Below are positions 9,851-10,621 of a stretch of DNA of 64,000 nucleotides, in pieces (the first letter of the stretch is position 1; each line of letters starts with the position of its first letter). The notes under the pieces were generated by a model. It did not search any database, was not told where the DNA came from, and worked only from the letters and a program-made list of their open reading frames with translations. Source of the DNA: an uncultured Candidatus Saccharibacteria bacterium. GTDB taxonomy: Bacteria; Patescibacteriota; Andersenbacteria; UBA10190. The translations under genes and the position numbers were made by a program. The stretch covers positions 9,806-73,805 of the forward strand of contig CAYJKV010000006.1 of NCBI GenBank assembly GCA_964371255.1. Direction: 5' to 3'.

Positions 9851-10621
9851 TTAGTTGATTATTTCTCCTTTATTGTCATCTACCCTTTTACGCCACTTAT
9901 TAAGTTCTTCGGGTGTTTGTTTCGTCCAGTCAGTAACCTCTCCAATGATTTTCAACGGTGCTTCAGTGCGATATGAACGTGTCGGATTTCCAGGGAAGTA
10001 ACTGTTTGTAACATTTGGGTCATTTTCAAAACTCCCTGTTGGTTCAACAACATATACATGCTCATCCCCATCACTTCGTGCCAACGCAGCAGCTAACCCT
10101 GCTCCACTAGCAAAAGCTGTGAAGTAAATGTGGTTCATTTTAAATTCGGATTGATAATTAGACTCACGCCCAACAGTTAGCAAATCACCAATCTGTAAAT
10201 CTGCTTTCGTCCCATGATAAAACGGTCCTTTGTCAGAAGGTGCATCGTCACATGAAGCTGCTAACTCATAATGCCTTTTAGCCTCGTTAGCATCGCCTAA
10301 TTCCTCATAGCATTTAGCGATATTTGAATAGAGAGGAGAAAACGCACTTTTTACTGTGTCGTCATTTATTTTTAATGCAAGCTGCAAATCAGTTTTAAGC
10401 CACCGTAACTTTTCGGAAACACTTTTTTGATGTCGAGCTACGTAATGAGCCGAAATAAATTTTTCAAAATCATTTGTCGTTTCATTCCAGGCTTGAAAAA
10501 ACAATTTACTTGCTGATTCAGGGTCGCCTTTCTTTTCCATGGCAATACCCTGAAGACAAAGACGGACAATATTATTTTTTTGGCTAAATTCCATATTCAG
10601 AATTAATTTCTTCTTCAGCAT
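9851..10621 (-). CDS. arr: Fusion protein: N-terminal TPR-like helical domain + C-terminal Arr-family (rifampin-type) mono-ADP-ribosyltransferase
   Basis: C-terminal ~135 aa matches Arr signature GPFYHGTKA..IGDLLT...HIYFTA...YVVEPTGSFENDPNVTN.YFPGNPT.SYRT..PL.I.GEV.DW; N-terminal ~120 aa helical repeats. Confidence 0.75.
   Translation of the reverse strand: MLKKKLILNMEFSQKNNIVRLCLQGIAMEKKGDPESASKLFFQAWNETTNDFEKFISAHYVARHQKSVSEKLRWLKTDLQLALKINDDTVKSAFSPLYSNIAKCYEELGDANEAKRHYELAASCDDAPSDKGPFYHGTKADLQIGDLLTVGRESNYQSEFKMNHIYFTAFASGAGLAAALARSDGDEHVYVVEPTGSFENDPNVTNSYFPGNPTRSYRTEAPLKIIGEVTDWTKQTPEELNKWRKRVDDNKGEIIN

Follow-up and report, generated by a model that had tools for sequence, protein, structure and literature searches.

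The 64,000-nucleotide stretch of contig CAYJKV010000006.1 analysed here (hereafter the window) contains, at positions 9851-10621 of the minus strand, a single unbroken open reading frame (ORF) of 256 codons with an ATG start, which fuses an N-terminal TPR-like domain to a C-terminal Arr-type ADP-ribosyltransferase domain. On the evidence of homology, the product is a genuine member of the Arr enzyme family to which a TPR domain has been added, and the gene belongs to a large, mobile two-domain subfamily that is neither rare nor unannotated. To our knowledge, all characterised Arr enzymes are single-domain proteins of ~140-150 residues, a form from which the 247-residue window protein departs; this length describes the characterised enzymes and is not a requirement for activity.

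Organisation of the TPR-Arr gene

All window features described below lie on the minus strand. Translation most likely starts at the tenth codon (M10, position 10594) and not at 10621, because nearly all homologues have the corresponding length and start: 116 of the 120 best homologues are 240-265 residues long, and nearly all are exactly 247 residues and begin MEF. The coding sequence would thus span 9851-10594 and comprise 247 codons, starting MEFSQ, and a TAA stop codon. The gene product is 100% identical to a database protein of this length, P0001, which is recorded for the same metagenome contig under ENA ERZ13693046. The nine additional in-frame codons of the maximal ORF (MLKKKLILN; 10595-10621) are probably 5' untranslated, few homologues being called from the longer start (P0007, P0507). 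Both ATGs (10621 and 10594) lack a Shine-Dalgarno sequence. Residues H136, Y166 and D201 of the 256-residue ORF correspond to H127, Y157 and D192 of the 247-residue protein, whose numbering we use unless the ORF is named.

The TPR-like domain (residues 1-118; 10241-10594) folds in our AlphaFold2 (AF2) model as six main helices forming three hairpins, and is supported by this model, Foldseek searches, the ratio of non-synonymous to synonymous substitution rates (dN/dS) and homology to stand-alone proteins. A short interdomain linker with the sequence P-S-D-K (residues 119-122; 10229-10240), whose P119 is kept in fusions, leads into the Arr domain (residues 123-247; 9854-10228), which was assigned from the PF12120 and NF033144 profiles and superposition on the Arr-ms structure 2HW2.

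The Arr domain retains the catalytic residues of characterised enzymes

A first-pass annotation made from the letters of the window had recognised the C-terminal domain from its conserved blocks, and all of the motifs that it quoted are present in the ORF (GPFYHGTKA, IGDLLT, HIYFTA, YVVEPTGSFENDP, FPGNPTRSYRT and GEVTDW). Profile searches bear out the assignment. Pfam PF12120 (Arr-ms) is matched over its full length by residues 134-232 of the ORF (E 8.8e-45; 151.4 bits, where the cutoff is 25), and rifampin_ARR, the NCBIfam equivalog NF033144, scores 145.8 bits, above its curated cutoff of 130. The sequences of the crystal structures of Arr-ms (2HW2, 9IAF) and Arr-2 (9IBA) match at E ~1e-34, and the alignment with Arr-ms is ungapped over 120 residues. 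Over ~120 residues, the window protein is 47.5% identical to Arr-ms and 53% identical to Arr-2; a typical fusion (P0040) is 54% and 55% identical to them, respectively. Because the identities of P0040 match the one between Arr-ms and Arr-2 (55%), the catalytic domain falls within the ordinary diversity of Arr. Single-domain arr genes carried on Streptomyces plasmids are up to 66% identical to the C-terminal domain.

Mutagenesis has shown that H19, Y49 and D84 are essential in Arr-ms (PMC6092378). The alignment to Arr-ms and Arr-2, which the first-pass annotation had proposed as a check, finds all three intact in the window protein, as His127 in the HGT NAD+ motif (codon 10214-10216), Tyr157 (10124-10126) and Asp192 in DPNVT (10019-10021); each position was taken from the 2HW2 alignment and its codon read in the DNA. 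The HGT, SNY and DPNVT motifs are likewise kept. Among 233 fusion proteins, H19, G20, T21, S37, N38, Y49, D84, P85, N86, V87, T88, S99 and R101 (Arr-ms numbering) are invariant. The protein closes with the C-terminal tail G-E-I-I-N (9854-9868), conserved family-wide, in which G243, I245, I246 and N247 are invariant in alignment A1. The window protein resembles Arr-ms and Arr-2 in its fold, its H-Y-D residues and its HGT, SN[Y/F] and DPNV motifs, and differs from them in an extra 118-residue N-terminal TPR domain and in a shorter C-terminal tail ending in GEIIN.

The N-terminal module also occurs as a free-standing protein

At the level of sequence profiles, the N-terminal ~120 residues give TPR matches below threshold only. 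The best, to TPR_2, reaches 23.6 of the 27 bits required and is confined to residues 97-124 of the 256-residue ORF, so the domain does not reach the Pfam TPR gathering threshold, and no dedicated Pfam or NCBIfam model matches either the domain or its stand-alone relatives. An exhaustive HMMER search with residues 1-121 retrieved 496 representatives at E<=1e-3, 229 of them at E<=1e-10. Most of these relatives are free-standing proteins of 139-150 residues, notably from Bacteroidota (Mucilaginibacter, Pedobacter, Flagellimonas and Panacibacter), and they are homologous over the whole N-domain (35-66% identity, with E values as low as 1e-45). They go by various names ('rRNA adenine methyltransferase', 'hypothetical protein' and 'TPR repeat protein'), and some copies are called 'rifampin ADP-ribosylating transferase', a name transferred from the fusion. 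In the free-standing forms, the Arr domain is replaced by a ~25-residue C-terminal helix (LPxxGYGxMIRxGIxxGxxR) or by an extra ~80-residue domain. P0145, P0164 and P0255 share a common ~80-residue C-terminal extension (WCxxKDLKxLAxLLPxYxxNLG...), which has no Pfam match and makes a third architecture of the module.

The stand-alone proteins of ~140 residues are thus homologous to the N-domain of the window protein and lack an Arr domain, and they display the same conserved residues. Positions conserved at >=90% in fused and free forms alike are F3, N7, L12, C13, G16, E20, A28, F32, A35, W36, E44, F46, A49, A53, Q56, L63, W65, L70, A73, L88, Y89, E97 and A105. The comparison of fused with free proteins revealed no fusion-only conserved position in the TPR body; at the linker, P119 is conserved in fusions, whereas the stand-alone proteins have a leucine there and then diverge. 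Homology therefore marks the TPR module as a protein family of its own. Because the conserved residues are identical and none is fusion-specific, the module most likely does the same job fused or free, that is, it binds a partner or ligand and did not evolve solely as a buttress for Arr. A 'split' fusion, with a free-standing TPR gene beside a single-domain arr gene, was not seen in the three contexts that we examined; one free-standing copy sits among glyoxalase, GNAT, flavodoxin-like reductase, DinB and beta-lactamase-family genes.

Structural model of the fusion

We modelled the protein with AF2 using alignment A2, which contains 148 diverse sequences. The whole chain reached a mean predicted local distance difference test (pLDDT) score of 90.9 and a predicted template modelling (pTM) score of 0.84. 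With 20 near-identical sequences, AF2 resolved the TPR half only, and the Arr half remained at pLDDT 30-50. In the model, the N-domain has pLDDT values of 83-98, with helices spanning residues 8-21, 25-37, 42-53, 59-76, 85-98 and 102-114; the blocks of the Arr domain average ~84-96, with one loop block at ~72 and the C-terminal tail at 61.

A TPR domain is a right-handed superhelix of tandem helix-turn-helix repeats, each ~34 residues long; the modelled N-domain has such hairpins, in three repeats, and Foldseek matched it to three-repeat TPR structures, among them FLU-TPR, CTPR3, LpoP and HOP TPR2A (template modelling (TM) scores of 0.70-0.83, normalised by target). These data uphold the earlier reading of a TPR-like domain encoded in one ORF with Arr. 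The Arr domain matched 2HW2 with E 7e-14, a TM score of 0.79 and a root-mean-square deviation of 2.4 A over 120 columns, and so has the Arr fold, a compact ART core in which helices alpha1 and alpha2 make up the rifampin pocket. No solved structure spanning both domains was present among the Foldseek matches. Taken by itself, the pTM score of 0.84 suggests that the two domains hold a defined mutual orientation.

The fusion is widespread, mobile and under purifying selection

The TPR-Arr architecture recurs at constant length in hundreds of 90%-identity protein clusters, which answers the search for further fusions that the first-pass annotation had called for. A pattern scan restricted to one genome per species yielded at least 196 confirmed relatives. 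The 247-residue clade includes Cyanobacteria (Nostoc, Nodosilinea, Oculatella and Chamaesiphon), Bacteroidota (Chryseobacterium, Pedobacter, Chitinophaga and many metagenome-assembled genomes (MAGs)), Acidobacteriota, Ignavibacteria and MAGs of the candidate phyla radiation (CPR), the last comprising Andersenbacteria (88% identity), Portnoybacteria (83%) and Kaiserbacteria (82%). A 249-residue clade occupies Bacillota (Bacillus, Niallia, Desulfosporosinus, Clostridium, Sarcina and Lachnospiraceae). The extension that had been called atypical is so in comparison with the characterised enzymes; overall it is not, the fusion being abundant in public data and already annotated.

By Nei-Gojobori estimates against nine orthologues, dN/dS is 0.11-0.22 in the TPR half and 0.06-0.19 in the Arr half, which shows that each half is translated and under purifying selection. 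The CPR, cyanobacterial and Bacteroidota copies are 70-88% identical to each other, an identity across phyla that points to horizontal spread, and synonymous divergence from several cross-phylum copies is unsaturated (0.3-1.2 in the N-domain).

Mobility is also apparent from replicon data. Full-length TPR-Arr is encoded on nine PLSDB plasmids. In the Enterococcus faecium conjugative plasmid pI, a 249-residue arr product (WP_021401106.1; NZ_CP045013.1, 191978-192727; L089, 4992-5741) is flanked by IS1216, DinB and aph(2'')-IVa on one side and by lsa(E)-lnu(B) on the other, and the exact pI protein is recorded on at least 1000 contigs. The copy on a Nostoc flagelliforme plasmid is ringed by IS982, IS630 and IS5 transposases.

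Public genomes routinely label the fusion genes arr or 'TPR repeat protein'. Annotated 247- and 249-residue arr genes on Nostoc, Fischerella and Gloeothece plasmids have the same architecture and length as the window protein, and those annotated in Chryseobacterium, Pedobacter and Chitinophaga chromosomes in Bacillus, Niallia and Desulfosporosinus and on E. faecium plasmid pI have the same two-domain form; their products are 57-88% identical to the window protein. The window copy differs from them in belonging to a small sub-branch of CPR MAGs, in having an S/N-Y lid instead of K-K and in its genomic context. In Lachnospiraceae bacterium 54-53 (L034, 5995-6744), Kineothrix sedimenti and Heyndrickxia, the TPR-Arr protein is shortened to 137-141 residues. 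For the first two, NCBI yields 141-residue RefSeq products through an internal start, and behind the shortened calls lie an intact 249-codon ORF in the DNA and a 249-residue GenBank product. Because annotation picks such internal starts, the TPR domain is hidden in protein databases and in length-filtered surveys.

We found no mention in the literature of Arr fused to TPR. Morgado et al. (PMC8492726) collected Arr-domain proteins of 36-679 residues, then filtered them by identity and coverage to Arr-ms, and their post-filter genus table gives 0 Arr for Nostoc and Desulfosporosinus. Since both genera carry the long form, it was apparently dropped from that survey. According to PMC5073890, the characterised Arr-cb of Clostridium bolteae groups with Arr of clostridia and cyanobacteria; its listed length of 414 bp suggests a single-domain protein.

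Residues of the rifamycin pocket

In Arr-ms, rifamycin-binding site 1 comprises residues 86-96 and site 2 residues 126-133, and we took the list of rifampin-contact residues from PMC6092378. The window protein keeps N86, V87, T88, P96 and S99 and has a phenylalanine at position 92, as does Arr-2. The contact residues are mostly kept across the fusions, which have phenylalanine at position 92 and, for the most part, leucine at position 130. The lid lysines are present in most fusions: K90 occurs in 96 and K91 in 87 of the 116 clade-A proteins, and in clade B the counts are 116 and 115 of 117. Position 91 is a tyrosine in 25 of the 116 clade-A proteins, and the window copy and its closest relatives have S/N/Q-Y where most fusions have K-K. 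In Arr-ms, K91, which is part of a flexible lid, forms a cation-pi contact above the naphthoquinone (PMC6092378; 2026 bioRxiv structure paper). We conjecture that a tyrosine could stack in its place.

Genomic neighbourhood in the window

Upstream of the TPR-Arr gene lie genes for a Met-rich membrane protein with a C-terminal SHOCT motif (MMNQMMIQMMGEEGEEQMH...; 11292-12014), a DsrE-like protein (10958-11284) and a 77-residue protein with two transmembrane segments (2-TM; 10668-10901). Downstream are an ORF of 153 residues (9228-9689) and a gene for a patatin-like phospholipase (8414-9265). The gene order and gaps agree with the first-pass annotation, at 7 bp between the SHOCT and DsrE genes, 56 bp between DsrE and 2-TM, 46 bp between 2-TM and arr and 161 bp from arr to the next ORF. 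The methionine-rich repeats of the SHOCT protein resemble metal-binding motifs. The patatin protein is RssA-like but falls below the cutoff, with weak matches to PADLOC phospholipase effectors, and the start of its gene is overlapped by 38 nt by the 153-residue ORF. The REC label given earlier to that ORF found no support in profile searches, as no Pfam, NCBIfam, PADLOC or PHROG model matches it.

The annotation had also implied a link of the gene with this SHOCT, DsrE, 2-TM and REC-patatin neighbourhood, which we find conserved in none of 80 other genomes. A tblastn search of 80 arr loci located none of these neighbours beside arr except the SHOCT gene, of which an Andersenbacteria MAG has a homologue (70% identical; L003, 2503-3207) lying 2.8 kb upstream of its arr gene, and we rejected an operon or functional link. 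Clustering of all genes within 4 kb of arr at the 80 loci of other genomes revealed no universal partner gene, and no neighbour cluster was present in more than 13 of the 80. The recurrent neighbours (7-13 of the 80 loci) are sensor kinases, AHSA1/SRPBCC, RibD_C, ArsR, AraC and DUF1801 proteins and alpha/beta hydrolases; in Bacteroidota, they are detoxification-type small genes (AHSA1/SRPBCC, RibD_C, ArsR and DUF1801). The behaviour of the TPR-Arr gene is that of a self-contained unit of one gene that moves horizontally, and not that of an operon member. A defence-system or phage origin was considered and rejected, the Arr protein having no PADLOC or PHROG match.

Between the 2-TM stop codon and the first ATG of the ORF, the RNA is predicted to fold into a hairpin (10624-10659) followed by UUUUGUUUU. 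The hairpin has a folding energy of -22.2 kcal/mol (z -3.3); it escaped a simple terminator scan, whose rules its loop or stem does not fit. It may be a terminator or attenuator that parts arr transcription from the upstream genes, a separation that we infer because a stable hairpin and a U-run stand between them. The ykkC-III and AAC_AAD_leader RNAs have been reported near other arr genes; upstream of the window gene, Rfam returned no known RNA leader or riboswitch at E<=1. No recognisable sigma-70 promoter precedes either start, in a scan limited to the sigma-70 consensus that rose above chance nowhere in the region.

Mobile-element boundaries were likewise sought around the gene, with short chance-level repeats as the only outcome and no transposase nearby. 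GC content around the gene is 39-42%, compared with ~46% for the window, so the surroundings that had been described as AT-rich deviate in that direction, though to a modest degree. The window is chromosomal and carries DnaG, GroEL and tRNA-Ser. Elsewhere in it, where its GC content is lowest (34-39%), the region 15738-18335 encodes an 865-residue protein with PHP and SMC_N-type ATPase domains, beside an M23 peptidase gene. Almost all 1-kb bins show negative GC skew, and the minus strand carries most long ORFs, as would fit a single replichore with strong gene-strand bias.

Proposed function of the TPR-Arr protein

We propose that the protein carries out NAD+-dependent ADP-ribosylation of rifamycin-type antibiotics, with a probability that we estimate at roughly 0.6. 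The Arr domain, formed by the C-terminal 125 residues, would bind NAD+ through its HGT and SNY motifs and Tyr157, and Asp192 would help to transfer ADP-ribose to a hydroxyl of a rifamycin-type ansamycin; by homology, the modified drug would then be unable to bind RNA polymerase. The model would have the TPR module packing in a fixed manner against the Arr domain; its most likely role is to bind whatever partner or ligand its free-standing relatives recognise, and not only to buttress Arr. The antibiotic-resistance role raised in the first-pass annotation is plausible, given the 249-residue homologue on plasmid pI with aph(2'')-IVa on one side and lsa(E)/lnu(B) on the other.

Several points weigh against this proposal. 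K90 and K91, which cover the rifamycin naphthoquinone in Arr-ms, are replaced in the window copy by Ser198 and Tyr199 (codons 9998-10003), L130 is replaced by valine, and M126 of the main hydrophobic pocket is a tryptophan in 231 of the 233 fusions (Trp234 in the window protein, codon 9893-9895). Because the lid lysines, L130 and M126 are replaced, the affinity or specificity of the window copy for its substrate may differ. The nearest homologues of the Arr protein, in Andersenbacteria, Kaiserbacteria and Portnoybacteria MAGs, and the nearest relative of the SHOCT protein indicate that the host is probably an uncultured CPR-like bacterium, which may or may not be exposed to rifamycins. The pI copy is not among the AMRFinderPlus or RGI predictions in the PLSDB table, and in the searchable literature we came across no experiment on a TPR-Arr protein.

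These points leave room for an active enzyme with a non-rifamycin acceptor, be it a small molecule, a protein or a nucleic acid, for which the TPR module would supply target recognition; we consider this possible but unlikely. Three-repeat TPR domains usually bind peptides or proteins, and the structural matches of the N-domain include HOP TPR2A, RPAP3 and PcrH complexes. The TPR core is identically conserved in free-standing proteins and so would have a function of its own, and the M126W replacement in essentially all fusions, with K90S and K91Y in the window copy, would fit a changed acceptor, as would the roles beyond rifampin resistance reported for Mycobacterium smegmatis Arr (PMC3138739). 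Against a non-rifamycin acceptor, most rifamycin contacts are kept family-wide and the catalytic domain has diverged from Arr-ms or Arr-2 no further than these two have from each other, the NF033144 score exceeds a cutoff curated for equivalogs, a homologue resides within the antibiotic-resistance gene cluster of pI, and the searches of defence and phage families and of the 80 genomes returned neither a match nor a conserved partner gene. We likewise found no evidence for the 'repurposed ART effector' that had been suggested earlier, in view of the lack of PADLOC or PHROG matches and of rifamycin contacts that are largely kept across the family.

A more specific and rather improbable scenario is that the TPR module acts as a portable recognition domain, with one conserved surface common to its free and Arr-fused forms, docking the transferase on a partner such as RNA polymerase. 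The enzyme could then act at the drug target or ADP-ribosylate a macromolecule, and the Ser-Tyr lid of the CPR copies could shift the acceptor.

It is also doubtful, to a slightly greater degree, that the gene is cryptic or effectively non-functional in its host, being poorly expressed or kept for a non-catalytic role. The lack of a recognisable sigma-70 promoter or Shine-Dalgarno sequence and the terminator-like hairpin directly upstream would agree with such a state, and arr gives no resistance in most C. bolteae strains that carry it (PMC5073890). However, dN/dS is 0.06-0.22 over both domains and the catalytic residues are all invariant, and the promoter scan, limited to the sigma-70 consensus, exceeded chance nowhere in the region.

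Finally, we exclude as extremely improbable that the N-terminal region is a separate gene mis-joined through an assembly or frameshift artefact, the possibility that the first-pass annotation had itself raised: although NCBI gives some orthologues as 137-141-residue proteins without the N-terminal half, these are internal starts on intact long ORFs (as shown for Lachnospiraceae bacterium 54-53), the 247- or 249-codon ORF is unbroken in genomes, plasmids and metagenomes obtained independently from many phyla, and both halves, the N-terminal one included, are under in-frame purifying selection.

Implications for the Arr family

Arr enzymes provide bacteria with a clinically relevant means of resisting rifamycins; the two-domain TPR-Arr form is common, moves between phyla and sits on plasmids, one of them the conjugative plasmid pI, on which its neighbours are genes for aminoglycoside and lincosamide resistance. 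If the long form is active, a mobile determinant of rifamycin resistance is under-reported in resistance-gene catalogues. If the TPR module alters targeting or substrate, the fusion would be the first Arr with an accessory recognition domain.

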